The notes under the pieces were generated by a model that saw only the letters and a program-made list of their open reading frames with translations, was not told where the DNA came from and made no database searches. Made by a program: the position numbers and the translations under genes. A stretch of DNA of 64,000 bases from an uncultured Candidatus Saccharibacteria bacterium (lineage in GTDB: Bacteria; Patescibacteriota; Minisyncoccia; Phycocordibacterales; CAYSCM01), in contig CAYSCM010000001.1 in NCBI GenBank assembly GCA_964429815.1, forward strand, positions 224,001 to 288,000, given 5' to 3'. The first letter of the stretch is position 1. Each line of letters starts with the position of its first letter. Of this stretch, positions 38,091 through 62,225 are shown piece by piece.

Positions 38091-38170
38091 AATGAAGGCG
38101 CGATTTGCGCCCCGGAGCTCTCTATAGTAGAGTGGCCATGCGCAAAAGGCGCGTTTTTGTTTTAGAAAAA

Positions 38171-38581
38171 ATGTCCACAATAAACCAGCTCGTGAAGCGA
38201 AAGCGCAAGGACGCGAAGCGCAAAACCAAGACGCTCGCTCTTACCTATGGCTTCAACACGCTTGAGAACCGCCCGAGCAATTTTAAGTCGCCCTTCAAGC
38301 GCGGTGTGTGCACGAAAGTCACCACCAAGACCCCTCGCAAGCCTAACTCTGCTATTCGCAAGATCGCCCGCGTTCGCCTCACCAACGGCACCGAAATCAC
38401 CGCCTACATTCCCGGTATGGGGCACACCCTCCAAGAGCATTCGGTAGTGCTTGTGCGTGGAGGTCGCGTAAAGGACGTTGGTCTTCGCTACCAGATTGTG
38501 CGTGGTAAGTACGATGCTACGGGTGTCGATACGCGCCGCCAGGGCCGCTCTCGCTACGGTAACAAGCGACCTAAGGGTTAA
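38171..38581 (+). CDS. rpsL: 30S ribosomal protein S12
   Basis: [13 protein letters not shown]...PKKPNSA(I)RK...GGRVKDLPGVRY pattern. Confidence 0.9.
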
Positions 38582-38647
38582 AAATCAGGATATGAATAAT
38601 CTAGCTATAGCAAAGTTATTCATACGCCAACATCGACAAAGATAATC

Positions 38648-39112
38648 ATGAGAAGGAAAGTTAAGAAGCGAAATATTCCCGGACCGGATCTTGTCTATCA
38701 AAATCCGAAGGTTCACAAGCTCATCAACTACGTGATGAAGGAGGGGAAGAAGAACGCTGCACGCAAAATCGTGTACGGCGCGTTCGATATCATCAAAAAA
38801 GATCATGGCGATCCGGTCGAAGTCCTTGAGCTCGCGCTCAAAAACGTCGGCCCGACTATGGAGGTTCGCTCTCGCCGCGTCGGCGGTGCCAACTACCAGG
38901 TGCCGCGCGAAGTGCGCCCGGAGCGCCGACTCGCTCTCTCCTACCGCTGGCTCCTCGACGCTGCAAATGGCAAGAAGGGAAAGCCTATGGCCGTAAAACT
39001 TGCTGACGAAATTCTCTCTGCTTCGAAAAACGAGGGTTCAGCCGTGAAAAAGCGCGAAGATACGCACAAGATGGCGGAATCTAACCGCGCCTTTGCTCAC
39101 TTTGCGTGGTGA
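38648..39112 (+). CDS. rpsG: 30S ribosomal protein S7
   Basis: 154 aa; RRVGGANYQVPREVRPERR...AVKKREDTHKMAESNRAFAHF. Confidence 0.9.
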   Translation: MRRKVKKRNIPGPDLVYQNPKVHKLINYVMKEGKKNAARKIVYGAFDIIKKDHGDPVEVLELALKNVGPTMEVRSRRVGGANYQVPREVRPERRLALSYRWLLDAANGKKGKPMAVKLADEILSASKNEGSAVKKREDTHKMAESNRAFAHFAW

Positions 39113-39149
39113 TTTTCGAGTAAAGCGAAGAAAATTCTAGTTGCAAATT

Positions 39150-39176
39150 GGAGCATCCCGCTCCAATTTTGTTTTT
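39150..39176 (+). terminator. terminator after rpsG (GGAGCATCCCGCTCC + T-run)
   Basis: Hairpin plus TTTTGTTTTT. Confidence 0.5.
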
Positions 39177-39366
39177 CTGTAGAAGCCAAGGGACACAGTA
39201 CTACGATAGTATCGCAGTATCTCGCAAGGCGCGTGCGCAGGTAGCGTTTATCTCCTGGGCGAAGCGCCTTGCGTCTAAATAACCTCGCAAAATTGGGGTC
39301 GAGGCGCCCACTTCGCCTAGTAAAAATCGCTCAGAAACGAGCAGTTTTTACTTGAAGGCGAAAATA

Positions 39367-39395
39367 TTGACAATTATAAAACTCCAATTTATAAT
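39367..39395 (+). promoter_or_regulatory. consensus sigma70 promoter TTGACA-17-TATAAT driving the inserted membrane ORF
   Basis: Exact hexamers. Confidence 0.6.
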
Positions 39396-39432
39396 GATCC
39401 TAGTGGAATGAGTTCCAACTTTGGAGGAGAAT

Positions 39433-39873
39433 ATGTCCGAGATCTCGCTGATCTGGGTGCTCAGGCTCATCGGTCTCACCACCCTTCTGGGGCTCATTGC
39501 CTTACCGACGGGGATCCATTTTGTTAGACTTTTTATTTACCGACTCGAAAAGAGATGCAGCGTGCGGTTGGAAGCGGCCTCGGCATCACTCTATTTACTT
39601 AGAGAAAGTTTTCGACCCCTGCTCTATATCCCAACTGCGCTAGGGTATCTGCTGTGGATCGCATCGTTTCTTTCGGTGGTTGGGACGACGCCTCTCTTCG
39701 TTCTTTATCTTTTTAAGTCAGACTACCCAATCGCTAGCGCCATCGAGGCCGCTGCCGTATTGGCTGCCTACATAATCGGCTGGCGACTTGGGTCAAGCCT
39801 TCATTTTCTCCAGCTAAAAAAGCTGAATGACGAAGCGCTCCTCGACCTGTATCCCCCGAGTTATGATTATTAG
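39433..39873 (+). CDS. hypothetical polytopic membrane protein inserted between rpsG and fusA
   Basis: RBS GGAGGAG 3 nt before the ATG; 4 predicted TM helices; followed by terminator 39886-39913. Confidence 0.5.
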   Translation: MSEISLIWVLRLIGLTTLLGLIALPTGIHFVRLFIYRLEKRCSVRLEAASASLYLLRESFRPLLYIPTALGYLLWIASFLSVVGTTPLFVLYLFKSDYPIASAIEAAAVLAAYIIGWRLGSSLHFLQLKKLNDEALLDLYPPSYDY

Positions 39874-39885
39874 TACTTTGACGTA

Positions 39886-39913
39886 GAGGACCCGCAACGC
39901 GGGTCCTCTTTTT
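39886..39913 (+). terminator. rho-independent terminator (GAGGACCCGCAACGCGGGTCCTC + TTTTT)
   Basis: 9-bp GC stem plus T-run. Confidence 0.65.
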
Positions 39914-39970
39914 GCAAATTTTCCGCTTTGGAGTATTCTACACATCACGCCACTGGCGCTTATTTTATTT

Positions 39971-42118
39971 ATGAACCGGGACTATCCACTGGAGCGAGTA
40001 CGAAACTTCGGCATCATCGCGCACATCGATGCGGGGAAGACCACCACGTCCGAGCGCGTCCTTTTTTATACCGGCTCCCAGCACAAAATCGGGGAGGTGC
40101 ACGAAGGTGAGACCACGACCGACTGGATGGAGCAGGAGCGCGAGCGCGGCATTACCATTACCGCGGCCGCCATCACTTGCTTCTGGAGCAGGACTGATGA
40201 GGTGGACAAGAATAACAAAGAAAAGAAAACGCGCTTCAACATCATCGACACCCCGGGACACATCGACTTCACCGTCGAAGTGAAGCGCTCGCTTCGCGTG
40301 CTCGACGGGGCCGTCGTCGTTTTCGACGGTGTTGCAGGGGTCGAGCCACAATCCGAAACTAACTGGCGCTACGCGGATGAGGCTTCGGTGCCGCGCATCT
40401 GTTTCATCAACAAACTCGATCGCATGGGCGCCTCCTTTGAGCGCTCCTATCAGTCAATTCTCGACCGCCTCAACAAGAGGGCGGTACGCATGCAGCTCCC
40501 GATCGGGGCAGAGGAAAACTTCTCGGGTGTTGTCGATCTTCTCAAGATGAAAGCGTATCGCTTCGAAGGAAAAATGGGTGAGACCGTCATCGAGATGGAG
40601 ATCCCGGCAGAGCTGATGGATGAGGTTAAGAAGTATCGCGCCGAGCTCATCGAGCGCATCGTTGAAAACGACGATGATGCCATGAATGCCTACCTCGAGG
40701 GCACGGAGCCGTCGATCGATGAGCTCAAGAAAATCCTCCGTAAAGCCGTCATCGCCAATAACATTTTCCCCGTCTACACCGGAAGCGCGCTCAAGAACAA
40801 AGGCGTACAGCTCGTTCTCGACGCCGTCGTCGACTACCTTCCGTCCCCTATCGACCTCCCGCCGGTTAGGGGTACTGACCCAAAGACGGGCGAGGCCATC
40901 GAGCGCAAGCCCTCCGATGCGGATCCGTTCTGTGCGCTCGCCTTTAAGCTCCAGACTGACCCCTTCGTCGGAGCGCTCACGTTCTTCCGCGTCTACTCAG
41001 GCACGGTGGAGGCGGGCTCCTATATCTACAACTCCACGACCAGTACCAAGGAGCGCCTTGGCCGCATCGTGCGCCTTCAAGCGGACAAGCGCGAAGAGGT
41101 GAAGAAGGTGTTTGCCGGTGAAATTGCCGCCGCGGTCGGCCTTAAGGACACAAAGACCTCCCACACGCTATGCGACGAGAGTAAGCCCATCGTGCTCGAG
41201 CAGATCAAATTCCCCGAGCCGGTCATTTCGATGCGCATCGAGCCGAAGACCAAGCAGGACCAGGAAAAAATGGGCATGGCGCTCAAGAAGCTCTCCGATG
41301 AAGATCCGACGTTTAAGGTCTCCGCTGATTCCGAAACTATGGAAACGCTCATCTCGGGCATGGGTGAGCTTCACCTTGAAATTATCGTCGACCGCATGAA
41401 GCGTGAGTTTGGTGTCGAGGCAAACGTCGGCAAACCGCAAGTCGCGTATCGCGAAACTATCCAGAAAGAGGCGGATGCGGAAGGCAAGTACATCAAGCAA
41501 ACCGGCGGTCGCGGCCAGTACGGACACGTACGTATTAAGATCCAACCGCTCCAGCCGATCGATCCAGAGGCGAAGGTCAAGAAAAATGTTTCGCGCGAAG
41601 ATCACTTCGAATTCGTCAACAACATCAAGGGCGGTGTCATTCCGCAGGAGTACATCCCCGCGGTCGAGAAGGGTATCAAGGAAGCGATGGAGCGCGGCAT
41701 CGTCGCGGGCTTCCGCATGGTGGATATTTCTGTCGAGCTCTATGACGGCTCCTATCACGATGTCGACTCCTCGGAAATCGCCTTTAAGATCGCTGGTTCC
41801 ATGGCATTCCAGGATGCCGCCAAGAACGCTCACCCTGTCCTTCTCGAGCCGATTATGAAAGTGGAAGTTGTCGTTCCGGAGAAATTCGTCGGCGACATCA
41901 CCGGCTCTATCAACGGCAAGCGCGGGCAGATCGAGGGTATGGAAGAGCGAGGTATGGCTCGCGCCGTGCGCGCCAAGGTGCCGCTCTCTGAAATGTTCGG
42001 CTATACGACCGCACTCCGCTCCATGACGGAAGGACGCGCTTCCTTCACCATGGAATTTGATCACTACGAAGTGGTACCGCCAAACGTCGCAAAAGAAATT
42101 ACTGAATCTCGCAAGTAG
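39971..42118 (+). CDS. fusA: elongation factor G
   Basis: 715 aa; G-domain [21 protein letters not shown]; domains II-V. Confidence 0.9.
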
Positions 42119-42176: not shown

Positions 42177-42353
42177 CATGAGTACGCAAAAAGCTAACCC
42201 CGATCCGTTCATCGAGGGCCATCTCCGTGATCGCTACGAGCGCGGCGAGCGGCCGGACTTTCGCGAGCCGCGAAATCCTCTGCCAAAGGTGCGTCCCGGT
42301 GCCTCGATGGAGGTCGTGCCGAGCTTTATCGCCGGACGTAAAAAGAAGTAGCG
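42177..42353 (+). CDS. possible small protein (58 aa), below the ORF-track cutoff
   Basis: AGGAG RBS 6 nt upstream; followed by hairpin GCGGGCCGCCCCTAGGCGGCCCGC; composition plausible but unverified. Confidence 0.3.
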
Positions 42354-42434
42354 TGCGGGCCGCCCCTAGGCGGCCCGCGATTTATTTGCAATACTGCGGT
42401 TAACAACGTTCTTTCATAAACAGAGGAGAGAGTC

Positions 42435-42953
42435 ATGCTGGACACGTTCGGCCGCTCGATCATGGCCCTTTCGAACTCGTCCTCCAGTGGTTACTGGGCC
42501 AGCTGTCGCAGGTGGGAAGGCGTCATTGCCTTCCTCGTCATCATCGATGAAGAAAAGAAAAAGACGGCGGACGTACTGCTCCATCCGCACGACATCGAGC
42601 CTGTGCTCTATTTCTCTCTTACGGTCCCGGGCGTTCGTATCACGGAAAAGAACCGCGAGTCCGTAGGGAAGCTCGCTAGGATGGTCAACGCGCGCTTGCC
42701 GTACATCTCGATAAGCCCGGAGACGGGCGATGGCACGCTCTTCTGCTATTACGTATGGCGCTACCCCCGCATCATCGACGCCAAAGAATTCCGCGATAAC
42801 GTCGAGGAAATCACCGAAGATTTCGGTGAGGTCATGCGAACATTCCACCGCTATTTCCTCTGGCTCGTGCGCGGGAAAATAAGCCTCGAGGATCTGGAGA
42901 AGCTTCTCACTGAGCGCTTCCCCCTTGAGGGAGGCCCCCCGAGGCTCTCCTGA
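42435..42953 (+). CDS. hypothetical protein, YbjN-like (putative sensory-transduction/chaperone-like fold)
   Basis: GGAGAG RBS; preferred over the Arg-rich antisense ORF 42414-43007; followed by palindromic terminator 42969-43004. Confidence 0.45.
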   Translation: MLDTFGRSIMALSNSSSSGYWASCRRWEGVIAFLVIIDEEKKKTADVLLHPHDIEPVLYFSLTVPGVRITEKNRESVGKLARMVNARLPYISISPETGDGTLFCYYVWRYPRIIDAKEFRDNVEEITEDFGEVMRTFHRYFLWLVRGKISLEDLEKLLTERFPLEGGPPRLS

Positions 42954-43012
42954 AATCAAGACGCTCCCCGCGCGGCCCCTTGCGGCCGCGCGGTTTCTCT
43001 TTTTCATTCAGT

Positions 43013-43041
43013 TGACTATTTTTAGAAGCCCCTCTACAATT
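43013..43041 (+). promoter_or_regulatory. promoter TTGACT-17-TACAAT upstream of tuf
   Basis: Good hexamer match. Confidence 0.5.
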
Positions 43042-43201
43042 CCCCCTACGCAAGAGTGCGTTCTTTTTGTTTACCCCGGTGCACGGCCGAGGGTCACAGA
43101 GAGGCGCGCCAGGCAGATTAATAGAAGCCAAGTCTTCTTGGGTCAGGCGTCTCTCGCGCACTTACTCAAGACAGGGTTGGAAAAATTATAAACACATACA
43201 A

Positions 43202-44398
43202 ATGGCAACATTTGACCGTTCGAAGCCGCACGTCAACGTGGGCACCATCGGCCACGTCGACCACGGCAAAACGACGCTCACCGCCGGCATCCTCCATGTT
43301 CTCAACATGGCAGGAGGTGGCTACGGTGCACGCGCCGAAGCTGTCGATCAGATCGACAACGCTCCGGAAGAGAAGGCTCGTGGTATCACCATCGCCCTTC
43401 ATCACTCCGAGTACTGGACGCCTGCGCGCCACTATGCGCACATCGACGCTCCGGGCCACGCTGACTACATCAAAAACATGATCACGGGTGCCGCCCAGAT
43501 GGACGGCGCAGTGCTCGTCGTTGCAGCGACCGACGGTGTCATGCCGCAGACGCGCGAACACATCCTTCTCGCTCGCCAAGTCGGCGTGCCGAAGATCGTC
43601 GTCTTCCTCAACAAGGTAGACATGGTTCCGGATAAAGACCTCATCGACCTCGTCGAAGAGGAAGTCCGCGAGCTCCTTACCAAGAACAACTTCGATGGAG
43701 CTAATGCTCCGGTCATCCGCGGCTCGGGCCTCAAGGCGCTCGAATCGAAGGATATGAACGACGAGTACGCACAGAAGGTGCTCGAACTCGCCAAGGCACT
43801 GGATGAATACATCCCGACACCGGTTCGCGAGACGGACAAGCCGTTCCTCATGCCGATCGAAGACATCTTCTCGATCGAAGGGCGCGGTACTGTCGTCACG
43901 GGCCGCATCGAGCGCGGCAAGGTGAAAGTTGGCGAAGACGTCGAAATCGTCGGTATCAAGCCGACGGCCAAGACGACCGTGACCGGCATCGAAATGTTCA
44001 ACAAGCAGCTCGATGAGGGTCTCGCCGGCGACAACGCAGGCATCCTCCTTCGCGGCACGAAGAAAGAAGATGTACACCGCGGCCAGGTCATTTGTAAGCC
44101 AGGCTCGGTCACTCCTCACACGGAGTTTGAGTCAGAGGTCTACATCCTCAACAAGGATGAGGGCGGTCGCCACACGCCGTTCTTCACCGGCTACAAGCCG
44201 CAATTCTACGTCCGCACGACCGACGTCACCGGCGAGGTCACCCTCGCACAGGGCGTTGAAATGGTCATGCCGGGCGATACCGTTACCTTCAAAGTGAAAC
44301 TCACCGCTCCGGTAGCGCTTGAGGAAAAGCAGCGCTTCGCTATCCGCGAAGGCGGCAAGACCGTCGGCGCCGGCGTCGTCACCAAGATCGTCGCCTAA
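43202..44398 (+). CDS. tuf: elongation factor Tu
   Basis: 399 aa from [28 protein letters not shown]; the ORF-track 5' extension is not coding. Confidence 0.95.
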
Positions 44399-44427: not shown

Positions 44428-44805
44428 ATGGCAAGCGAAACCACCAAAAAACCCCGCGCACCTCGCACCAAAAAGGCCACTAAGGCCCCCGAGGCGCCGA
44501 TTCAGAAGCTTCGCATACGGGTGCGCGCCTACGAACACAAGCTTCTCGACGCGTCCGTAAAGCAGATCATCGACACGGCAATACGCTTCGACGCGACGGT
44601 CGTGGGGCCGGTTCCGCTTCCTACGGAAATTAAAAAATATACCGTCAATCGCTCGACCTTCGTCCACAAGAATGCGCGAGAGCAGTTCGAGATGCGGGTC
44701 CACAAACGAATGATGGATATCATGAATCCCAATCCGAAGGTGATCGAGGCACTCACGAACCTCAATCTTCCCTCCGGCGTCAACATCGACGTAAAGATGG
44801 TCTAA
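44428..44805 (+). CDS. rpsJ: 30S ribosomal protein S10 with ~25-aa basic N-terminal extension
   Basis: QKLRIRVRAYEHKLLD...GPVPLPT core. Confidence 0.9.
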   Translation: MASETTKKPRAPRTKKATKAPEAPIQKLRIRVRAYEHKLLDASVKQIIDTAIRFDATVVGPVPLPTEIKKYTVNRSTFVHKNAREQFEMRVHKRMMDIMNPNPKVIEALTNLNLPSGVNIDVKMV

Positions 44806-44825
44806 CAAAAATGCGACCACCCAAA

Positions 44826-44850
44826 AACGCTCCCAATCAGGGCGTTTTTT
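44826..44850 (+). terminator. terminator after rpsJ
   Basis: ACGCTCCCAATCAGGGCGT hairpin followed by TTTTTT. Confidence 0.5.
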
Positions 44851-44865
44851 GGTGTTACCGGCACA

Positions 44866-44895
44866 TTGACAAAATGGCCTAATTCGTGCTATAAT
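44866..44895 (+). promoter_or_regulatory. promoter TTGACA-18-TATAAT
   Basis: Exact hexamers; downstream leader contains GTGCAG/CTGCAC inverted repeats. Confidence 0.55.
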
Positions 44896-44962
44896 GTGTG
44901 CAGTATTGAACATCCTGCACTGCAGGCCTGCACCTCAAGGTTTAGGGGTAGGAGTAACTCCG

Positions 44963-45352
44963 ATGACGACCGCCGAAATCAGGATCAGTGGCAAGCGCCC
45001 CCCGAACACTCATGGCATCATGCACCTCTATATTGAGGGACAGGCCAAGCCCATCTACATCTGGACGCCTGAGGAGATCGACTGGCTCTGCGGCCATGCC
45101 GTTCACCGGCTAGACCACGCGTATGACGCTTATCTAAGGGATCTGTCCTGTCCGGAATCGATCGAGAATCCCGAGCTTCGCGAAGCAGTCCGTGTCTGCC
45201 AGAAAGAGCGAGCGGAGAAGGTGCCCCACGAAAAACGCACCTGGCTCCTTCTCTCGCCGAGAAAGATTCGCTATTCGGCGTGGGCGGGGACGCTCGTCCT
45301 TGTCTCGAACCGTGCCCGCATCGAGGAGCTCCTCCAGCTCGCGGCGGCCTAA
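44963..45352 (+). CDS. hypothetical protein (129 aa) inserted between rpsJ and rplC
   Basis: AGGAG RBS 7 nt before ATG 44963; the longer ORF-track version is probably 5'-extended. Confidence 0.45.
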   Translation: MTTAEIRISGKRPPNTHGIMHLYIEGQAKPIYIWTPEEIDWLCGHAVHRLDHAYDAYLRDLSCPESIENPELREAVRVCQKERAEKVPHEKRTWLLLSPRKIRYSAWAGTLVLVSNRARIEELLQLAAA

Positions 45353-45373
45353 GCCCACACGCGCGAACCTATT

Positions 45374-45410
45374 CCGCCCGGAAGTCTCGAACCTCCGGGC
45401 GGTTTTCTTT
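45374..45410 (+). terminator. terminator CCGCCCGGAAGTCTCGAACCTCCGGGCGG + TTTTCTTTT (member of a repeated hairpin family)
   Basis: 9-bp stem; near-identical architecture to 45944-45982. Confidence 0.6.
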
Positions 45411-45438
45411 TGACTTTTTATTTTTTTGTGATATTATT
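45410..45438 (+). promoter_or_regulatory. promoter TTGACT-17-TATTAT
   Basis: Hexamer match; AT-rich spacer. Confidence 0.5.
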
Positions 45439-45482
45439 TTGGAGGCGTCTAGAACCCCCTCAGCACAACTAGGAGTAAGAAT

Positions 45483-45926
45483 ATGAGAAACTCGACCTTC
45501 GGGAAACTCCGCCTCCTGCCTTGGGAGACACGATACACGCCGTTCTCATACTTCATCCGAAATGAAAGAAAAAAGAGAAACGTGTCGCTCAGGGCCTTCT
45601 ATAAATTTCTTGTTGACAGGCACGGAGGACCAATTGTCGGGGTCGATAATTCTCTAATCAGCAGATGGGAAACAGCAAATGCGGAACCGTCCGCTGATGC
45701 AGTGCAAGTTCTTGCAATTATTCTCGAAGTTCCACTGCAGGCGCTAGCATCTCTCATTCCGAGCGCGTGGTCGTTACTACTAATCGAGGTAGCGGATATC
45801 GTGCACATCCTCGCGGAAAGAAAATCCCAGGAGAACATGACGATTGGAGAGATGGTCCGTATGTTGCAGGACCATATTCGCCACAAATACTGGGATGAAA
45901 GCAACGATAGGATTTCACTCAAGTAA
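45483..45926 (+). CDS. XRE/Cro-C1-type helix-turn-helix transcriptional regulator (putative)
   Basis: RBS AGGAGTAAG; segment NVSLRAFYKFLVDRHGG...SLISRWETANAEPSADAVQVLAIILEVPL resembles HTH_XRE; inserted in the S10 operon. Confidence 0.5.
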   Translation: MRNSTFGKLRLLPWETRYTPFSYFIRNERKKRNVSLRAFYKFLVDRHGGPIVGVDNSLISRWETANAEPSADAVQVLAIILEVPLQALASLIPSAWSLLLIEVADIVHILAERKSQENMTIGEMVRMLQDHIRHKYWDESNDRISLK

Positions 45927-45943
45927 CAGATTTTCACCCTTCC

Positions 45944-45982
45944 GCCCGGCAGTCTCGCGACTGCCGGGCGTTTTCTTTTTTA
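45944..45982 (+). terminator. terminator CGCCCGGCAGTCTCGCGACTGCCGGGCG + TTTTCTTTTTT
   Basis: 12-bp stem plus T-run. Confidence 0.65.
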
Positions 45983-46112
45983 TTTGCATATTTTTAGAGG
46001 TTCCTGTAGTGTGTCCCCATTCGCTACGTTCTCTAGGGAATACCCGGTGGGAACCAATGGCAAGAAGGCTCTAAGAGCCCGGCGCCATTGTTGGCGTTTT
46101 TTTGTTTCAACC

Positions 46113-46748: not shown

Positions 46749-46753
46749 ACACT

Positions 46754-53878: not shown

Positions 53879-53949
53879 AAAGCCCTAGCTTTCAGAGCAA
53901 TTTGTATTTTTTGGGCTTCAGCTTAGGTCGAGCTTTCGGACCGGAGCAG

Positions 53950-53979
53950 TTGACAATCTCCACTATTATATAGTATAAT
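53950..53979 (+). promoter_or_regulatory. promoter TTGACA-18-TATAAT driving the DGR target gene
   Basis: Exact hexamers; followed by RBS AAGGAGG 6 nt before ATG 54118. Confidence 0.6.
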
Positions 53980-54117
53980 TCTTTCCATAACACTAGTTCC
54001 TTGATTTGGTTTTGCCCTGGCAGGAAGAGCTTTCGTTGAGAGAATTTCCTGCTGTGGCAAAGCCCGTTCGGGCCGAGTCTGAACAGCACTGTAAAAACGC
54101 TCAAAGGAGGTAATCTC

Positions 54118-54759: not shown

Positions 54760-55096
54760 TTCTCGAACCCTTAAGCCCTCGGCCTGAGATCCTTTGACCC
54801 TCTGAAACTTTGCGAAGCAATTTGCGAAGGAGTAGGAGGGTCTTCTATTTTTTATTTTGATATAGTAAGACGTGAGGAGTGCTACTGATGCGGCGGCTAC
54901 GGCTTCCGCACAGCGCCTCGAGTATCTGTATCGCCAGAATCACGTCGGCTAAGGCTTGCGCGAGAGCGCGTGCAGGTACTCTTAAAAAAGATAAAGAATC
55001 GGTGCCTCATGCTGGCGGACTTCAAGGTCCCACATACGATACAGCTCGGAGAGTATTCGATGGGTGGTGTTATTGATGGCTTAAGGCACACAACGG

Positions 55097-55206
55097 ATGG
55101 GCGGTGAACGCCAACTGGAACGCCGACAACGGGGGCTGGAACGTCAACGCCAACTCAGTCGACAACCCGAACGAGTGGAACCGGGGTAACCAGGTTCTTT
55201 CCCGCT
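55097..55206 (+). repeat. DGR template repeat (TR); AAC-rich (11 AAC codons in VR frame); followed by hairpin CCCCGCCCTTCGGCGGGG + TTTT
   Basis: See VR; ORF-track entry 55104-55391 is the TR read in the VR frame, not a gene. Confidence 0.85.
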
Positions 55207-55570
55207 ATTCTTTTCTTCCCCCGCCCTTCGGCGGGGTTTTGCTTTCGAGGCCCCTCTTCCATCCCCCAACCATCCGACCCAGTTCGTGCACTTTTTCCGA
55301 GAGAGCAGCATACCTCTTTGTGTCAAGCGCGCGCAGCTCCCATGCGACTCGTAAAAGGAATTTCGCGGTGTCTATTTTTTTGAGTGTGTGAAAAAGTGTC
55401 GGCACTTTTTCACCCGAGCCCTGATAACTTGCGGTGAAGAGAAGTTCCAGCGTGTCTATGAGCGAAAAGTCGATGCGCTCACCGAGTGTATACCGGGCGT
55501 TTTTTGGAAAGTTGTTCCTGCACTCATGCCAGATTTTATATACTGCAACAGCATGTTCAATAACCGGCAA
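55205..55570 (-). CDS. avd: Avd-like accessory protein (four-helix-bundle / 23S rRNA-IVS protein family)
   Basis: 121 aa; HAVAVYKIWHECRNNFPKNARYTLGERIDFSLIDTLELLFTASY resembles IVS/Avd four-helix-bundle proteins; on the strand opposite TR and RT; stop codon abuts the TR 3' end. Confidence 0.65.
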   Translation of the reverse strand: MPVIEHAVAVYKIWHECRNNFPKNARYTLGERIDFSLIDTLELLFTASYQGSGEKVPTLFHTLKKIDTAKFLLRVAWELRALDTKRYAALSEKVHELGRMVGGWKRGLESKTPPKGGGRKE

Positions 55571-55590
55571 AAGTCGTTGGGGGGGTCGCT

Positions 55591-56592
55591 TTGAGGTCGC
55601 AACTCGCTCATACGTATGACGATATCATCTCGCTAGAAAATCTCCTTGCCGCATGGCAGGAATTCGTGCGCGGGAAGCGCAAAAAATGCGACGTGCAAGA
55701 GTTTCAGTTTCGGCTCGTGGACAATATTCTTGAGCTCTACCGTGACTTGAAAGAGAAAACATACACGCATGGGCCGTACCACCCTTTTAAAATAAGCGAC
55801 CCTAAACCCCGCGACATCCACAAGGCGAGCGTACGCGACCGGCTCCTCCACCACGCAATATATCGGAAACTCTATCCATTCTTCGACAAAATTTTCATTG
55901 CCGATTCGTACTCATGCAGGAAAGGCAAAGGAACACACAAGGCGATGAACCGTTTTCGTTCCTTTGCATACAAGGCGAGCTTAAATCACACAAAAACGCT
56001 TTGGGTGCTCAAGTGCGACATCAAAAAGTTCTTTGCATCAGTCGATCAGCATGTTCTCCTGGAGATTATTAGGCGCTGCATTTCTGACACCGACATCCTC
56101 TGGCTCATCGAGCGAGTCGTGCAGAGTTTCAATCCCAGCAGGGAGGGCACGGGTCTCCCGCTCGGCAATCTCACCTCGCAGCTTTTAGTGAATGTGTATA
56201 TGAACGAGTTTGACCAGTTTGTGAAGCGCACCCTCAAAGCGAAATACTACATCCGTTACGCCGATGATTTTGTGATTTTCTCGCAAGATGCGAAATGGCT
56301 CCAACAAATATGCAAATATATCAGCATATTCTTACGTGAACGGCTGAAACTCGAATTGCACCCTAATAAAGTATCGATCACAACGCTCGCATCCGGTATC
56401 GATTTTCTCGGCTGGGTGAATTTTCCTGATCATCGCGTGCTACGCACCTCGACAAAGCGGCGGATGTTGAAGCGAATGACTGGTGAGCAATCTAAAGAGA
56501 TCATCAAACCGTATTTAGGGCTTCTTCAACATGGGAACAGCAAAAAGCTGCAATTGAAAATCTTGTTTGACACAGCAGAGGCAATCAAGTAA
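55591..56592 (+). CDS. DGR-type reverse transcriptase (TTG start)
   Basis: 333 aa; motifs [45 protein letters not shown] (SQ in place of group-II QG), RYADDFVIF; no maturase/X domain; G-rich RBS. Confidence 0.85.
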
Positions 56593-56734
56593 GCTCATCC
56601 CACAAAGCCGAGTAGGGCTTTTCTTTTGGCAAGTGCTAAACCGTCTACGCGGTCGCATACTCCCAGAAGAAAGGGAAGAATACTTCTCTTTTTTCACTCC
56701 ACACGTGGGGGATTGCCAGAAGTTCGTATACCAC

Positions 56735-56920
56735 ATGGCAAAAACCTCAGTCATCGTTCGAAGCAAACGAAAGCCCAAGTTTAAGTCTCGGGTTGTTCGT
56801 CGCTGTTTCAAGTGCGGACGCAAGCGCAGCTACATGCGCGACTTTGACCTGTGCCGCATCTGCTTCCGCGAACTCGCGAACGAAGGCATGATCCCGGGCA
56901 TTAAGAAAAGCTCCTGGTAA
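56735..56920 (+). CDS. rpsN: 30S ribosomal protein S14, zinc-binding type Z
   Basis: 61 aa; [25 protein letters not shown] (C4 zinc ribbon). Confidence 0.85.
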
Positions 56921-56925
56921 TTTCC

Positions 56926-57309
56926 ATGTTGATCACTGACCCAGTCGGAGATTTCATAGTGCGCCTCAAGAACGCGACCGACGCGGGACGCTCGTCGACG
57001 ACGGCGCCCTACAGCAAGCTGAGAGCCGCTATCGCGGAGAGTCTCAAGGGCCGCGGCTTCATCAAGAGCTACGACAAACGCGGCAAGAAGGCGAAAAAGG
57101 TCATCGAAATCGAACTCATCCCTGAGAAGATCCAAGGCGTCGCGCGCGTCAGCAAGCCGGGCCGCCGCCTCTACATTCGCGTCAACGAGATCAAGGCCGT
57201 CCGTTCCGGACAAGGAGCACTCGTGCTTTCGACCCCGAAGGGAATTCTCACCGATCGCGAAGCCCGCAAAGAAAACGTCGGCGGCGAAGCGCTCTTCAAA
57301 ATCTGGTAA
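56926..57309 (+). CDS. rpsH: 30S ribosomal protein S8
   Basis: 127 aa; DPVGDFIVRLKNA signature. Confidence 0.9.
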   Translation: MLITDPVGDFIVRLKNATDAGRSSTTAPYSKLRAAIAESLKGRGFIKSYDKRGKKAKKVIEIELIPEKIQGVARVSKPGRRLYIRVNEIKAVRSGQGALVLSTPKGILTDREARKENVGGEALFKIW

Positions 57310-57313
57310 TTCT

Positions 57314-57850
57314 ATGAGCCGCGTCGGAAAACAAATCATCATGGTCCCCGAAAAAACCGAGCTCACCCTCACGGGAGACCTTGTGTCTGTGAAGGGGCCG
57401 CTTGGAGAGCTCTCCCGGGCACTCGATAGCCGCATCAAGGTGGAAGTAAACGGCAACGAAGTAAAAGTTCTTCCCGCAGTCGCCGGTAAAGAGGGAGACG
57501 TCCTCTCGGGAACCTACGTCGCTCATATCAAGAATATGGTCGAGGGCGTCAACAAGCCCTTTGTTAAAAAACTCATCATCGAGGGTATCGGCTACAAGGC
57601 CGACGCGCAGGGCGATACCATCACTTTCGGCCTCGGTTTCTCGCACCCGATCAAGGTGAAGATTCCGACGGGTCTCAAGGTTACGACCGAAAAAGGTGTC
57701 ATCACGATTTCGGGAAGCAACGTCGAGCAGGTCGGGCAGTTCGCCGCGGACCTGCGGGATCTTAAGCGCCCAGAGCCGTACAAGGGGAAGGGTATCCGCT
57801 ACGAGGGCGAGGTCATTCACCGCAAGGAAGGTAAGAAGAACGTCGCATAA
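57314..57850 (+). CDS. rplF: 50S ribosomal protein L6
   Basis: 178 aa; MSRVGKQII...KPEPYKGKGIRYEGE. Confidence 0.9.
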   Translation: MSRVGKQIIMVPEKTELTLTGDLVSVKGPLGELSRALDSRIKVEVNGNEVKVLPAVAGKEGDVLSGTYVAHIKNMVEGVNKPFVKKLIIEGIGYKADAQGDTITFGLGFSHPIKVKIPTGLKVTTEKGVITISGSNVEQVGQFAADLRDLKRPEPYKGKGIRYEGEVIHRKEGKKNVA

Positions 57851-57855
57851 CCGCT

Positions 57856-58197
57856 ATGGCTTCCCTCAAAGAACAAAAACGAGAACGCCGCCACAAAAAG
57901 ATCCGCACGCGTGTCGCGGGTACCGAGTCGCGCCCACGCCTAGCTGTCTTCCGCTCCAATAAGTTCCTCTACGCGCAGCTCATTGACGATGAGAAGGGCG
58001 TTACCATAGCAGCCGCAAAAACCTCTGAGGCAAACAAGCCGATGCACGAACGAGCCGCTGCTGCGGGGGAGGAAATCGCCAAGAAGGCCCTGGCAAAAAA
58101 AATCGAGAAGGTAGTGTTCGATCGGGGCGGTTTCAAGTATGCTGGCGCGATCAAGGCATTCGCGGACGCGGCAAGGAAGGGAGGGCTTCATTTTTAG
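57856..58197 (+). CDS. rplR: 50S ribosomal protein L18
   Basis: 113 aa; RPRLAVFRSNKFLYAQLIDD...FDRGGFKY. Confidence 0.9.
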   Translation: MASLKEQKRERRHKKIRTRVAGTESRPRLAVFRSNKFLYAQLIDDEKGVTIAAAKTSEANKPMHERAAAAGEEIAKKALAKKIEKVVFDRGGFKYAGAIKAFADAARKGGLHF

Positions 58198-58203
58198 ACG
58201 ACC

Positions 58204-58803
58204 ATGACTGAGGAAACAAAAACAACGGGAGAAAATGTCGCAGTCGTGCAGGCGGCGGCTCCGGCTTCTGTTCCAGGAGGACCGCAGCGCCCCGACATGC
58301 GCGAACGACGCGCCCCACGCGGACGCGGACGCGGTGAAGGCCGCCGCGGGCAGCGCCCGGAGCGTGCTCGAAGCGAATTCGACCAGAAGATAGTCACCAT
58401 TCGGCGCGTGACTCGCGTTATGGCAGGAGGGCGCCGTTTCAATTTCTCCGTCGCGCTCGTCGCGGGGGACCGCAAAGGGCGCGTGGGTGTGGGGCTGGGT
58501 AAAGGTGCCGATACGTCGCTTGCGATCGATAAGGCACTTCGCGCGGCGAAGAAACACATGATACGCGTGCCGCTCACTCCGGAAGGACGCATTCCACATG
58601 AGGTCTCCGCAAAATTTGCAGCGTCCCGCATCATCATGAAGCCAGCTCCGGGGAAGGGCTTGGTCGCAGGAAGCTCCGCTCGCACTGTGCTTGAGCTTGC
58701 TGGTGTCAAAGATATTTCCGCCAAGCTCCTCTCAGGAAGCAAAAATCGCATCAACAACGCCCAGGTTGCGCTTGAGGCGCTTAAAACGCTCAAAGCCCGC
58801 TAA
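58204..58803 (+). CDS. rpsE: 30S ribosomal protein S5 with ~50-aa Arg/Gly-rich N-terminal extension
   Basis: Core KIVTIRRVTRVMAGGRRFNFSVALVAGD...GVKDISAKLLSGSKN. Confidence 0.9.
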   Translation: MTEETKTTGENVAVVQAAAPASVPGGPQRPDMRERRAPRGRGRGEGRRGQRPERARSEFDQKIVTIRRVTRVMAGGRRFNFSVALVAGDRKGRVGVGLGKGADTSLAIDKALRAAKKHMIRVPLTPEGRIPHEVSAKFAASRIIMKPAPGKGLVAGSSARTVLELAGVKDISAKLLSGSKNRINNAQVALEALKTLKAR

Positions 58804-58807
58804 TACC

Positions 58808-59254
58808 ATGAATCTCACCACCCTTAAACCAGCGCATCCTCGGCATAAAACGCCTCGCGTCGGCCGCGGCGGCAAACGCGGCAAGACCTCGGGCCGCGGC
58901 GGCAAGGGGCAGACCGCGCGCGCTGGCGCAAAAATACGTCCGGAATTCCGGGACATTATCAAAAAACTTCCGAAGCGTCGCGGCTACGGCCGCAACCGCT
59001 CACGCACTGTCTACACGATGCGTCCGCGGCCTATACCCATCTCGTTCGCCGACGTACTTAACGCTTTCGATGTCGGTGCAGAGGTGAACCGCAAGGCCCT
59101 CCTTGAGAAAGGGCTCATCGAGCGTCGCGGCGGCAAGCTTCCGCAGGTAAAAATCATCGGCACGGGCGAAGGCAAGAAGCTTTCCCTTGTTGGGATCGAG
59201 GTTTCAATGTCAGCACGCGCGGCCATCGAGAAAGCAGGTGGCTCCATCGCCTAG
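58808..59254 (+). CDS. rplO: 50S ribosomal protein L15
   Basis: 148 aa; LKPAHPRHKTPRVGRGGKRGKTSGRGGKGQ; directly follows rpsE with no rpmD (L30) gene between. Confidence 0.9.
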   Translation: MNLTTLKPAHPRHKTPRVGRGGKRGKTSGRGGKGQTARAGAKIRPEFRDIIKKLPKRRGYGRNRSRTVYTMRPRPIPISFADVLNAFDVGAEVNRKALLEKGLIERRGGKLPQVKIIGTGEGKKLSLVGIEVSMSARAAIEKAGGSIA

Positions 59255-59257
59255 GCC

Positions 59258-60529
59258 ATGCAATCTTTTTTCGAAAAAATCCGAGTCATCATTACCGACG
59301 CAGCGCTCCGTAATCGCATCATCTTCGTGCTCGGCGCGCTCGTCGTCTTTCGGCTTCTCGCCATAATTCCGATCCCGGGCGTCAACACAACGGCCCTCAA
59401 CCAGCTCTTCTCCAACAACCAGCTCCTGGGACTCTTCAACACTTTCTCCGGCGGGGGCCTCAGCAACCTTTCGATCGTACTCCTTGGTGTCGGTCCCTAC
59501 ATCACCGCCTCGATCATCATGCAGCTTCTCACCATTATGTCGCCGCGCCTTAAGGCGCTCTATACCGAAGAGGGGGAGGCGGGTCGGGAGAGGTTTTCCC
59601 AATACAGCCGCCTCCTCACGCTCCCCTTGGCGCTCATCCAGTCCTTCGGTTTCCTCGTTCTCCTCGAACGACAAGGCGTCGTCTCGTCGCTCTCCAATTT
59701 CAACTTTGCGGTAAACGTTCTCGTGGTCGCGGCCGGCTCGATTCTTCTCATGTGGATCGGCGAGCTCATTACGGAGTACGGCATCGGCAACGGCGTCTCG
59801 CTTATCATCTTTGCCGGCATCGTCTCGCGCCTTCCCGCAACCATCTCCCAACTCGCCTTCACCTTCACTGCCTCCCAGATCCCGCTCTATCTCACGTTCG
59901 TGATCGCGGCGGTCGCCATCGTCGCAGCGGTCGTCATCCTCACGGAAGCCGAACGACCCATTCCCATAACCTACGCCAAGCGCGTACGTGGTATGAAGGT
60001 CTACGGCGGCACTTCTACCTACCTTCCGCTTCGGCTCAACCAGGCCGGAGTTATTCCCATCATCTTCGCGCTCTCGATACTGCTCTTCCCGCAGCTCATT
60101 TTCAATTTCCTCTCGCACGCGCACAGCGATGTGATCGTCGGTATCAGCAATGTGATACTACGCTTCCTCAACAATCCGTTCGCCTACGCTGCCATCTACT
60201 TCGTTCTCGTGTTCGCCTTCACGTACTTCTATACCGCGGTCACCTTCGATCCGGATTCCATCTCGCAAAACCTTCAAAGAAACGGCGCCTTCATTCCCGG
60301 CGTGCGTCCGGGCGAGACGACGTCGCGCTACCTCGCAAAGATTCTTACCCGCCTTACGCTCGTCGGCGCAATTTTCCTCGGCATCATCGCGGTATTGCCG
60401 CTTGCAGTGCGGGCGATCACTGGCATCCAGGCGCTCGCGATAGGCGGCACCGCGCTTCTCATCGTCGTGCAAGTGGTCATCGATTTCATCCGCCGCGTCG
60501 ATGCGCAGCTCTCCATCCGGGAATATTAA
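59258..60529 (+). CDS. secY: preprotein translocase subunit SecY
   Basis: 423 aa; 10 TM; SecY signatures. Confidence 0.9.
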   Translation: MQSFFEKIRVIITDAALRNRIIFVLGALVVFRLLAIIPIPGVNTTALNQLFSNNQLLGLFNTFSGGGLSNLSIVLLGVGPYITASIIMQLLTIMSPRLKALYTEEGEAGRERFSQYSRLLTLPLALIQSFGFLVLLERQGVVSSLSNFNFAVNVLVVAAGSILLMWIGELITEYGIGNGVSLIIFAGIVSRLPATISQLAFTFTASQIPLYLTFVIAAVAIVAAVVILTEAERPIPITYAKRVRGMKVYGGTSTYLPLRLNQAGVIPIIFALSILLFPQLIFNFLSHAHSDVIVGISNVILRFLNNPFAYAAIYFVLVFAFTYFYTAVTFDPDSISQNLQRNGAFIPGVRPGETTSRYLAKILTRLTLVGAIFLGIIAVLPLAVRAITGIQALAIGGTALLIVVQVVIDFIRRVDAQLSIREY

Positions 60530-60567
60530 ACTGCAAGGAGCGCAGTGTTGGTGATAAGCTACTCTCC

Positions 60568-61167
60568 ATGGGGCCGAAAACGTTCATTTTCACGGGCCGC
60601 TCCGGCTGCGGCAAGGGGACTCAAGCATCGCTTCTTATTGATGATTATGCCCACGAAGGCCAGCCAAGCTACCGCATCGAATCAGGGGCGATGTTCCGCT
60701 CGTTTATAAGCGAGCATGGCTATACGAATGCCCTTGCCGCCGATATCCTCAATTCCGGCAAGCTTCAACCCGAGTTTCTTTCTATCTGGGTGTGGAGCAA
60801 CCTCCTTATACGTGACTTCCAAGACCCCTCCCCGCATCTCGTGCTCGACGGTATGCCGCGACGGATTCACGAAGCGCCGGTACTTGATGGGGCCCTCGAT
60901 TTCTACGATCGGGCAGAACGATTCGTGATCTATCTCAATGTGTCGAGGAAGTGGTCCGAAGACCGACTCCGCGCTAGGAAGAGGGATGACGATGTGGAGC
61001 AGTACATACAGAATCGCCTTGATTGGTTTGAAAGCGAGGTGATGAAGGTAATCGAGTTTTTCAAGAAGAATACGAAGTACACGTTTCTTGATATCAATGG
61101 CGAGCAGCCCATTGAGAAGGTTCGGGTTGATATCGCCGCTGCCATCAATGCACATTCGAAACACTAA
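60568..61167 (+). CDS. adk: adenylate kinase (divergent, short)
   Basis: 199 aa from MGPKTFIFTGRSGCGKGTQ (P-loop GxxGxGKGTQ); the long ORF-track frame 59752-61167 upstream of this Met overlaps secY and is not coding. Confidence 0.75.
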   Translation: MGPKTFIFTGRSGCGKGTQASLLIDDYAHEGQPSYRIESGAMFRSFISEHGYTNALAADILNSGKLQPEFLSIWVWSNLLIRDFQDPSPHLVLDGMPRRIHEAPVLDGALDFYDRAERFVIYLNVSRKWSEDRLRARKRDDDVEQYIQNRLDWFESEVMKVIEFFKKNTKYTFLDINGEQPIEKVRVDIAAAINAHSKH

Positions 61168-61918
61168 CGATATAGAAATTCTTCGCGAGGGAGGTCGCCG
61201 TTTGGCGGTGGTTTTGCGCCAGGTCGCTGCGGCCGTGAGGCCGGGAGTTTCCTCCGACGAGCTCAACAAGCTGGCGCAGAAACTCATCGAGGAGGGTGGC
61301 GACAGGCCGGCGTTTCTCGGCTACACGCCGGAAGGTGCTCCGCGCCCTTACCCCGCGGCGCTCTGCGTTTCCATCAACGACGAAGTCGTGCACGGTATTC
61401 CCAATGAGATACCGACCGTTCTGCGGGAGGGCGACATCGTCGCCCTCGACCTCGGGCTCATCCATAAAGGGCTCATTGTCGACGCGGCGGTTTCAGTTCC
61501 TGTCGGAAAGGTAGACGCAGAAGCACAAAGACTCATCACCACAACTAAAAAGGCTCTCGAGAAAGGCATCGCCGCTGCCCGTGGAGAGGCGAAGGTGGGC
61601 GACATCGGCGCGGCGATCCAGGCATTCGTCAAGCCGCACGGCTACGGCATCCCCCTTGAGCTCGGAGGCCACGGCGTTGGGATCAAGGTCCACGAGAAGC
61701 CCTACATTCCGAACGTTGGAAGGAAGGGGACGGGAGAGAGACTTACTGTCGGCATGGTCATTGCCATCGAACCCATGCTGAACGAAGGAAGGGCGGATGT
61801 GCGTATGGACAGCGATGATTACACCATACGGACCGCCGACGGCTCACGAAGCGCCCACTTCGAGCACACGATCTTGATAACTGAAGGCGCACCGGAAATT
61901 TTGACGAAAGAAAACTAA
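61148..61918 (+). CDS. map: methionine aminopeptidase type I
   Basis: 256 aa from MHIRNTNDIEILRE; overlaps the adk end by 20 nt; metal-binding D/D/H/E/E context. Confidence 0.9.
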   Translation: MHIRNTNDIEILREGGRRLAVVLRQVAAAVRPGVSSDELNKLAQKLIEEGGDRPAFLGYTPEGAPRPYPAALCVSINDEVVHGIPNEIPTVLREGDIVALDLGLIHKGLIVDAAVSVPVGKVDAEAQRLITTTKKALEKGIAAARGEAKVGDIGAAIQAFVKPHGYGIPLELGGHGVGIKVHEKPYIPNVGRKGTGERLTVGMVIAIEPMLNEGRADVRMDSDDYTIRTADGSRSAHFEHTILITEGAPEILTKEN

Positions 61919-61936
61919 ACAAGAGAGAATTAAAAA

Positions 61937-61967
61937 CGCGGGACCCTAAGGGTCCCGCGCCGGTTTT
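61937..61967 (+). terminator. rho-independent terminator after map (CGCGGGACCCTAAGGGTCCCGCG + TTTTT)
   Basis: 10-bp stem plus T-run; the spc/alpha-operon continuation (infA, rpmJ, rpsM, rpsK, rpsD, rpoA, rplQ) is absent downstream. Confidence 0.65.
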
Positions 61968-62225
61968 TCCGGAAGCATACCGAGAAAGTCGCTGGCGAGA
62001 CGGGACGCTCTACCTCGTCGCTGCGGCGCCTTGGCGCGCGCTCGCTCGATTTCCTGCTCGAGCGCGCGCTGCCCTTCGAGCTTTTTCCGCCTTCTTTCTT
62101 TTCGTCGCTCCCACAGCGAGTGGATAGTGGTGCGCATGAAACCCTCCAAAAAACGTTTCAGCGACTATACCGCAGGTGTGCATCTGTGCAAAGTCGCCGA
62201 TACGAGCGGGGTATACTAAGGTGCA

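Follow-up and report, generated by a model that had tools for sequence, protein, structure and literature searches.

Five fixed junctions of the str-S10-spc ribosomal protein cluster hold rapidly changing accessory genes in a clade of Patescibacteria

The str-S10-spc supercluster of ribosomal protein (r-protein) genes is commonly held to be the best-conserved gene arrangement in prokaryotes; its products are concatenated for phylogeny, and it serves to judge the quality of metagenome-assembled genomes (MAGs). In Escherichia coli the junctions rpsJ/rplC, rplB/rpsS and rplE/rpsN fall inside the single S10 and spc operons. Cyanobacteria, plastids and archaea have a pattern of their own, in which tuf is linked to rpsJ and a break falls before rplC. 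Here we describe this cluster in a stretch of 64,000 nucleotides from an uncultured bacterium (GenBank assembly GCA_964429815.1, contig CAYSCM010000001.1, positions 224,001 to 288,000), hereafter the window, where gene order is kept and five junctions are occupied by accessory genes.

Two kinds of described systems come closest to this locus. The first are hotspots of horizontal gene transfer (HGT) that are free of mobile elements and persist through double homologous recombination in the core genes on either side; they are enriched in naturally transformable bacteria, and new genes enter them at operon edges (Oliveira et al. 2017, PMC5635113). The second is the decay of ribosomal operon clusters by 'invasion-separation', reported in other phyla, where clusters are 'invaded' between operons (Brandis, PMC8046335). 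We rate the slots described below as a variant of these known hotspot and operon-invasion phenomena. No earlier report of interrupted r-protein clusters in the Candidate Phyla Radiation (CPR), Patescibacteria or Parcubacteria was found in the literature covered, a negative that is weak evidence of novelty because this coverage is incomplete.

Pfam scans of the window between 38 and 62 kb found each gene from rpsL through map in canonical order, collinear with the str-S10-spc supercluster (rpsL-rpsG-fusA-tuf-rpsJ-rplC to rplO-secY-adk-map), and confirmed every gene of the order listed in a preliminary description made from the sequence of this DNA. The tight packing expected of a canonical cluster is not found here. 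The core order is interrupted at five junctions, rpsG/fusA, fusA/tuf, rpsJ/rplC, rplB/rpsS and rplE/rpsN (four had been counted before, in a list that itself showed five), by slots of 0.8-2.7 kb which together hold 11 small non-ribosomal accessory genes, a complete diversity-generating retroelement (DGR) included.

Relatives were found by L2-anchored scans of species-representative genomes and metagenomes. Those recovered are Patescibacteria MAGs, with labels that include Paceibacterota, Nomurabacteria and Lloydbacteria, and the bacterium from which the window comes belongs to the Patescibacteria (CPR) and is a relative of Paceibacteria; its closest relative is a JGI contig pair (L046/L047, with L2 84% and S7 97% identical). 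The window proteins were mapped onto the loci, and distances between adjacent cluster genes were taken in 68 de-duplicated Patescibacteria loci, a gap being any spacing of more than 400 bp. Gaps occurred at rpsG/fusA in 7 of 11 observations, at fusA/tuf in 15 of 19, at rpsJ/rplC in 8 of 43, at rplB/rpsS in 22 of 32 and at rplE/rpsN in 15 of 19. Elsewhere they were limited to rplC/rplD (2/49) and rplW/rplB (2/57), the other 19 junctions having none. The same five junctions therefore take 67 of the 71 gap events (67/124 against 4/532 observations; Fisher p = 1.5e-51, a value that overstates independence because the loci are phylogenetically related). Three outgroup loci (L041, L042 and L044, verrucomicrobial and clostridial) lack gaps at all five slot junctions, and the spacing of their other adjacent cluster genes never exceeds 830 bp. 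Fragmentation of this cluster, previously thought rare, is by these counts the norm in the clade. Like cyanobacteria, plastids and archaea, these bacteria keep tuf next to rpsJ (0/40 interrupted) and can be broken at rpsJ/rplC; unlike them, rplC usually still adjoins rpsJ, and the break takes the form of a variable slot, not of a fixed separation.

What fills the slots changes quickly. All five are occupied in L046/L047 (1150, 2025, 852, 1264 and 1719 bp), by DNA that is not homologous to that of the window: nucleotide homology ends at the upstream stop codon and restarts at the downstream leader or promoter. The open reading frames (ORFs) in these slots have no Pfam match and no detectable similarity to those of the window, except for a single membrane ORF in common, at 28% identity. 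The suggestion that the inserts are lineage-specific is thus borne out by synteny. Slot length differs by 0.5-1.6 kb between genomes whose L2 proteins are 97-99.6% identical (L009/L052, L028/L056, L005/L006 and L021/L025), and 152 of the 224 slot ORFs in relatives are singletons. Families also move among junctions from genome to genome, as with a HigB-like toxin and its small partner, at rpsG/fusA, rplB/rpsS, fusA/tuf or rplC/rplD, and with pyrE/pyrF, at rplB/rpsS or fusA/tuf; other genes of housekeeping type in relatives' slots are queA, dgkA, a NUDIX gene and pilins. Core-flanked intervals with high accessory diversity and turnover among close relatives are one mark of a mobile-element-free HGT hotspot, and these junctions show it. 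The HigB/RelE-like module (a toxin of ~85 aa and a partner of ~70 aa) lies at 1859-2330 in L021, at ~4032-4550 in L022 and at ~5046-5525 and ~8688 in L068. We also considered whether the inserts are simply conserved core genes; this is rejected for the present genome and partly true in the sublineages that keep the pilin, DgkA and NUDIX genes.

Chimeric joins made during metagenome assembly or binning could in principle create such interruptions, and both the uncultured source and the contig ends of relatives speak for them: the rplB/rpsS slot holds 28 of the 39 contig 3' ends found downstream of rplB (related MAGs L003-L008, L012, L014 and others). We compared the window with per-run Logan assemblies, which reproduce every junction. 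Those of SRR12313479, SRR12313480 and SRR12313482 are 100% identical to it over 37122-40149, 45805-49594 and 46926-64000, stretches that take in inserts 1, 4 and 5 as well as the right part of insert 3. Other contigs of these runs show the orders fusA-ORF57-ORF172-tuf and rpsJ-ORF129-HTH-rplC, so that insert 2 and the rpsJ-facing part of insert 3 are recovered too (by contig, the first slot is recovered in L098 and L099, the third in L109 and L045, the fourth in L045 and L097), and a single 26.5-kb contig spans rpsJ to the RNase J gene. Gaps at the same junctions in the sister lineage and in dozens of relatives point the same way. Misassembly is excluded, and the probability that we attach to chimerism is negligible. 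The accumulation of contig ends suggests population heterogeneity or complete disconnection at rplB/rpsS. This slot is a systematic assembly breakpoint, which matters wherever r-protein contigs are used in binning or phylogeny. The clade resembles the first step of invasion-separation (PMC8046335): small sets of genes have entered the ribosomal cluster between its transcription units, and in some relatives the cluster looks fully disconnected past rplB, where either a contig end or foreign sequence of up to 7.8 kb follows. It differs in that three of its junctions (rpsJ/rplC, rplB/rpsS and rplE/rpsN) fall inside what are single S10 and spc operons elsewhere, whereas Brandis' events lie mostly between operons. 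Occupancy is here the rule, and the content is hypervariable.

The five slots, V1 to V5, separate six blocks of core genes, as follows.

38172-38581 and 38648-39112, plus strand: block 1, rpsL and rpsG (Pfam S12/S23 and S7; start MSTINQL, from the sequence)
39111-39906, plus strand: V1, rpsG/fusA (boundaries by blastn against L046)
39971-42118, plus strand: block 2, fusA (Pfam EF-G domains; leader from 39907 conserved with L046)
42119 to ~43011, plus strand: V2, fusA/tuf (boundaries by comparison with L046)
43202-44398 and 44428-44805, plus strand: block 3, tuf and rpsJ (Pfam; long leader before tuf)
44806-45941, plus strand: V3, rpsJ/rplC (boundaries by blastn against L046)
46113-46748, 46754-47416, 47422-47838 and 47844-48686, plus strand: block 4, rplC, rplD, rplW and rplB (Pfam)
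48687-50279, minus strand: V4, rplB/rpsS, three ORFs (ORF220, ORF115, ORF82)
50359-50706 (rpsS) to 53357-53878 (rplE), plus strand: block 5, rpsS, rplV, rpsC, rplP, rpmC, rpsQ, rplN, rplX and rplE (Pfam)
53880-56567, plus strand: V5, rplE/rpsN (boundaries against L046)
56735-56920 (rpsN) to 58204-58803 (rpsE), plus strand: block 6, first part, rpsN, rpsH, rplF, rplR and rpsE (Pfam)
58808-59254, 59258-60529, 60568-61167 and 61148-61918, plus strand: block 6, second part, rplO, secY, adk and map (Pfam)

The true starts of rpsL (38172), tuf (43202), rplC (46113), rpsS (50359) and rpsN (56735) lie later than those of the maximal ORFs. All six blocks have a leader with a short GC hairpin and a U-run, just 3' of the promoter or just 5' of the ATG, a feature that is kept in relatives and is not found at the promoters of accessory cassettes. 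The promoters and leaders of the blocks are listed here.

38138-38154, plus strand: block 1 leader, hairpin and U-run
39912-39939, plus strand: fusA, candidate promoter TTGCAA-16-TATTCT
39948-39969, plus strand: fusA, small hairpin and U-run
43012-43040, plus strand: tuf, promoter TTGACT-17-TACAAT, conserved in relatives
43048-43061, plus strand: tuf, hairpin and U-run, conserved in relatives
45943-45970, plus strand: rplC leader, hairpin
45984-46012, plus strand: rplC leader, candidate promoter TTGCAT-17-TAGTGT
46079-46098, plus strand: rplC leader, hairpin and U-run
50290-50318, plus strand: rpsS, promoter TTGACA-17-TAGTAT
50327-50344, plus strand: rpsS, hairpin AAGCTC..GAGCTT and U-run
56568-56596, plus strand: rpsN, promoter TTGACA-17-TAAGCT (conserved in L046 at 17302-17330)
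56604-56621, plus strand: rpsN, hairpin and U-run

The promoter at which transcription had been proposed to restart before rpsS is genuine. It is shared by 18 different related loci, where it reads TTGACA-16/17-TA(A/G)TAT; next come a hairpin, whose GCTC/GAGC core is invariant, and a U-run. It is present even where rplB and rpsS are only 100-250 bp apart (L001, L015, L066 and L071). Promoters indeed precede both rpsS and rpsN even at empty slots in relatives. Weaker but recurrent promoter-like sites precede fusA and rplC; in relatives, fusA has hairpins and promoters of a similar kind (TTGCAA/TATAGT), with covariation in the stems. The rplC leader, 82% identical to that of L046 over 222 nt, resembles the tuf promoter region (repeat D13), and the hairpin at 45943-45970, formerly assigned to the third insert, belongs to it. 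Sites scoring at least 10/12 within 200 nt upstream were found in relatives before rpsS (20/32), tuf (14/31) and rpsN (5/19), against 0-1 for the internal genes rplD, rpsC, rplP, rplN, rpsH and rplF and 5/59 for rplB, a comparison partly confounded by the AT-rich spacers. Because empty slots still carry the block promoters, the five junctions look, from their motifs, like ancestral transcription-unit boundaries. Rfam has no family match in 38.0-62.3 kb, either at the gathering threshold or at E <= 1, so the block leaders match no described r-protein leader; their hairpin may serve attenuation, stabilise the 5' end or act as an operator. In the long tuf leader (43128-43201), a motif (..CTCTCGCGCAC..) lies within an imperfect hairpin. 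Many relatives, L046 (5747-5871) among them, have it 5' of tuf, and this may be a cis-regulatory leader of a new kind that acts on tuf-rpsJ.

The first four slots of the window contain the following features.

39143-39172, plus strand: V1, terminator
39367-39395, plus strand: V1, perfect promoter
39433-39873, plus strand: V1, ORF146
39885-39909, plus strand: V1, terminator
42178-42351, plus strand: V2, ORF57
42354-42379, plus strand: V2, terminator
42435-42953, plus strand: V2, ORF172
42968-42993, plus strand: V2, terminator
44866-44895, plus strand: V3 first unit, perfect promoter
44963-45352, plus strand: V3 first unit, ORF129
45374-45402, plus strand: V3 first unit, terminator
45410-45437, plus strand: V3 second unit, promoter TTGACT-16-TATTAT (10/12)
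45483-45926, plus strand: V3 second unit, HTH147
48698-48724: V4, bidirectional terminator
48729-49391, minus strand: V4, ORF220
49467-49494, minus strand: V4, terminator
49500-49847, minus strand: V4, ORF115, membrane protein
49939-49963, minus strand: V4, terminator
49976-50224, minus strand: V4, ORF82

Beyond the helix-turn-helix (HTH), Avd and reverse transcriptase (RT) domains, no insert ORF has a match in Pfam, PHROGs or PADLOC; the last two gave weak HTH matches apart from Avd, and no prophage or defence identity. In V1, ORF146 is a membrane-like orphan of 146 aa with no match in these three collections, set between hairpins of -13.7 (39143-39172) and -20.1 kcal/mol (39885-39909). Each of the two V2 genes (57 and 172 aa) is followed by a GC-rich hairpin; ORF172, labelled YbjN-like before, may have a fold like that of type III secretion chaperones and also of YbjN proteins, and has no homologue in the protein libraries searched. 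ORF129 of V3 is a 129-aa orphan with no homologue among 1.84 billion representatives, and its neighbour encodes a 147-aa XRE-type regulator (HTH_3, 7e-05). The three genes of V4 (220, 115 and 82 aa) have a ribosome-binding site and a terminator each. A search of 5.8 billion proteins gave ORF220 only 7 homologues (45-50% identical), two of which could be placed, both in unrelated neighbourhoods of other Patescibacteria. ORF115 is the ORF shared with L046, where a 129-aa counterpart occupies the equivalent slot in the same orientation (28% identity, E 1.5e-8).

One might suppose that such genes are fast-evolving old residents, or were born de novo from the spacers, and that divergence rather than exchange separates the genomes. 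Composition gives evidence in both directions. The GC content at third codon positions (GC3) of the core genes averages 0.68 (SD 0.05). ORF172 (0.75) and ORF129 (0.74), both strict orphans, are host-like in this measure, as are ORF115 and the DGR target gene, and ORF172, ORF129 and ORF115 look resident or locally born. The ORF115 counterpart, the presence of three minus-strand ORFs in this slot in both genomes and the lack of any Pfam match among the L046 slot ORFs also favour residence. Low values (0.47-0.60) were found for ORF220 (0.47), the HTH gene, avd and the RT gene, which on this atypical GC3 look recently acquired. For ORF220 and the DGR, homologues are found at other loci, and identical families sit in different slots by genome. 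Slot lengths differ by 0.7-1.5 kb where L2 is 98-99.6% identical, and divergence alone is excluded as the source of these length differences. We regard old residence or de novo birth, in place of acquisition, as improbable.

The fifth slot, which had been described as holding a DGR, contains a complete one, consisting of a target gene with its variable repeat (VR), a template repeat (TR), avd and an RT gene.

53950-53979, plus strand: perfect promoter
54118-54759, plus strand: DGR target gene, 213 aa
54648-54757, plus strand: VR, ending 2 nt before the target stop codon
54796-54842, plus strand: strong hairpin, ~40 nt 3' of the VR
55097-55206: TR, forming with the VR a repeat pair of 110 nt, 85% identical
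55205-55570, minus strand: avd (PF22296 bAvd, 6e-14, above the curated cutoff; phrog_3206 'Avd protein of DGR', 3e-21)
55666-56592, plus strand: RT gene (RVT_1, 4e-26)

All 16 differences between TR and VR fall at TR adenines, within 11 AAC codons, 16 of the 28 adenines being changed. As to possible IMH/IMH* elements, the 3' ends of VR and TR are the same (GGTTCTTTCCCGCT), and the two sequences diverge beyond this point. No evidence of activity was obtained, because the VR is identical in the one independent contig aligned across it (L097, SRR12313480). The RT has at least 8,000 relatives at E <= 1e-30, and among the best 120 listed (65-72% identical) the named ones are all from Patescibacteria. 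Avd and a target gene accompany each of the three nearest RT loci examined, and the closest DGR RTs (69-71% identity) belong to cassettes arranged as here, with a target, a TR, avd on the minus strand and the RT. Cassettes in an identical order (L102-L105) lie at other chromosomal sites, beside ligA, recJ or recO, and in none of 96 related loci was a DGR seen between rplE and rpsN. This DGR shares with those of CPR bacteria, which were reportedly treated by Paul and co-workers in 2017, the RT, Avd and TR/VR components, the adenine-only changes in AAC codons and a VR at the C-terminus of a small target protein. It differs from them in its location at rplE/rpsN and in how it ends: the last eight codons of the RT cross the rpsN promoter, and its TAA stop codon is the first three bases of the -10 box, so that the cassette abuts the rpsN promoter exactly. 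The entire cassette could be bracketed by conserved primers placed in rplE and rpsN, which makes it an easily amplifiable context for a CPR DGR.

The preliminary description saw in these inserts autonomous modules, each with a near-consensus promoter and a strong hairpin terminator, and in the cluster a specific target of repeated integration. Part of this stands. Perfect sigma-70 promoters (TTGACA-N16-18-TATAAT), of which the window has four against none expected in 64 kb, head V1, V3 and V5, and hairpins with U-runs were verified at most cassette ends. Site-specific integration of mobile modules would also fit the unrelated slot content of sister genomes, the toxin-antitoxin pairs at varying junctions in relatives and the recurrence of the DGR cassette as a unit at other loci. 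It would fit, too, the 56-nt direct repeat, 75% identical, that brackets the HTH gene (45372-45427 and 45940-45995). This repeat comprises a terminator hairpin, a T-run and a -35 region and copies the start of the conserved rplC leader, which suggests cassette stacking through duplication or recombination of the rplC-leader module. The rest of the claim is not supported. V2 and V4 have no promoter of 9/12 or better in our scan (the best on the V4 minus strand reach 7-8/12 by eye), the hairpin after fusA has no U-run, and those after the TR and the RT are weak (z -1.7 and -0.5). Nor are cassette-borne consensus promoters general in relatives, where sites of at least 11/12 were found in 6 of 69 occupied slots, and ordinary housekeeping genes occur in those slots. 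Pfam and PHROGs reveal no integrase, transposase, relaxase or other recombinase among the slot ORFs, there is no tRNA within 38-64 kb, and the slot edges share no attachment-type (att) direct repeat, the only repeat being that around the HTH gene. DGRs, moreover, are not known to be self-mobile. No site-specific recombinase is involved, and since promoters precede rpsS and rpsN at empty slots, the data argue for tolerance at operon edges, at conserved transcription-unit boundaries, rather than for targeting. We consider integration of autonomous modules very unlikely.

The explanation that we regard as probable is that the five junctions, as edges of operons, are hotspots where genes are gained and lost without mobile elements, fed by recombination in their flanks. 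The clade keeps the str-S10-spc order, which would be organised as six separately promoted blocks, [rpsL-rpsG], [fusA], [tuf-rpsJ], [rplC-rplB], [rpsS-rplE] and [rpsN-map], each with its own promoter and hairpin/U-run leader and with terminator hairpins after rpsG, rplB and map. The five spacers between them would be permissive slots. Insertions would be tolerated there since DNA between a terminator and the next promoter causes no polarity, and accessory genes would accumulate and turn over because DNA placed between a stop codon and the next promoter leaves the polycistronic message intact. Recombination in the highly conserved flanking r-protein genes after DNA uptake would be the likeliest route of gain and loss, with duplication of a terminator/promoter module, as in the 56-nt repeat at the HTH gene, as an occasional further contributor. 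The window itself encodes DNA-uptake and processing genes 5' of the cluster, namely a T2SSE/T2SSF type IV pilus or competence ATPase and platform, RecJ and ComEC (20881-23853, 30320-32023 and 33053-34558).

Gene order, the five slots, their recurrence and turnover, the conserved promoters and the absence of mobility genes are direct observations. Several points weigh against the explanation built on them. We infer recombination as the mechanism, and the transcription units are delimited by consensus motifs only; the promoters of fusA, rplC and rpsN are weak matches, and V2 has no recognisable one. Some genes are fixed in sublineages, a prepilin-like pair at rplE/rpsN and DgkA with NUDIX at rplB/rpsS, and because these stay at one junction not all slot content turns over fast; the orphan ORFs of host-like composition may likewise be long-standing residents and not acquired genes. 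The 68 loci share phylogenetic history, were all recovered by L2 peptide patterns and so are anchored on rplB, and come from one part of the CPR, many of them as short MAG contigs.

With the hotspots of Oliveira et al. (PMC5635113) these slots share fixed core-flanked intervals, rapidly replaced accessory genes, the lack of an integrase or transposase and genes at operon edges, and the DNA-uptake genes of the host fit double recombination; the likeness here is drawn from position, content and turnover. They are unlike those hotspots in lying within the most conserved gene cluster of bacteria, five in 24 kb, and in being common to a deep clade (L2 identity down to ~55%) rather than to one species. 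A bolder possibility, which we hold to be doubtful, is that the cluster serves as a recombinase-free gene-capture platform of five junctions, conserved in Paceibacteria-like CPR bacteria, in which leaders and terminators insulate the r-protein blocks, r-protein genes act as universal homology arms through which naturally competent cells swap cassettes across species, and the leaders provide a clade-wide attenuation. Were this so, DGRs, toxin-antitoxin pairs, pilins and orphan surface proteins could be among the cargo that reaches this highly expressed neighbourhood, and the hairpin-plus-U-run leaders would keep r-protein output coordinated despite the fragmentation.

At its 3' end the cluster stops after map, as previously described, and the canonical continuation infA-rpmJ-rpsM-rpsK-rpsD-rpoA-rplQ is not found beyond it. 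A terminator (61937-61959, -27.9 kcal/mol) is followed by a gene for a 906-aa ATPase on the plus strand (62225-64000 and then past the window edge; also L097 15300-18622), and then by ndk and an RNase J-like gene, the latter two seen in contig L097. The ATPase has TraG-D_C and DUF87/HerA matches over its full length, resembles TraG/VirD4 and HerA, and has a PADLOC mad8 match (2e-17). This end is lineage-typical, with ndk and not infA-rpmJ-rpsM immediately 3' of map in the relatives L031 and L040; because ndk directly follows map there, map/ndk may be a sixth slot. At the 5' end, an M50 peptidase gene (37449-38090) adjoins rpsL, preceded by rpmB (L28; 37150-37392, minus strand), and the str genes are not preceded by rpoB/rpoC in this genome.

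Among the core genes, rpmD (L30) is absent, and rplO directly precedes secY; the absence of rpmD is a trait of the CPR. The rpsN product, S14, is the 61-aa zinc-ribbon form. S5 has an N-terminal extension of ~58 aa rich in Arg, Gly and Pro (rpsE 58204-58420), not conserved in L046, and the Logan gene calls at rpsE give a spurious 52-aa ORF and a truncated rpsE. Far from the cluster, the fourth perfect sigma-70 promoter of the window (11651-11678, plus strand) precedes ~2.7 kb of GC-rich DNA (0.58-0.60) with no credible ORF, up to 14400. A sub-threshold Hammerhead_3 match lies within it (12714-12768; 31.5 bits, E 4.5e-4), no Rfam family reaching its gathering score, and we regard 11651-14400 as a candidate large non-coding RNA or ribozyme-bearing element.

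For the organisms concerned, these results mean that the str-S10-spc gene order is retained throughout a CPR clade that uses five fixed junctions as accessory slots with fast turnover. This outlines the probable transcription-unit structure of the cluster in these organisms and helps explain the frequent assembly breaks after rplB. The slots also offer well-anchored loci at which gene gain and loss, recombination and the birth of orphan genes can be measured in uncultured bacteria with tiny genomes.

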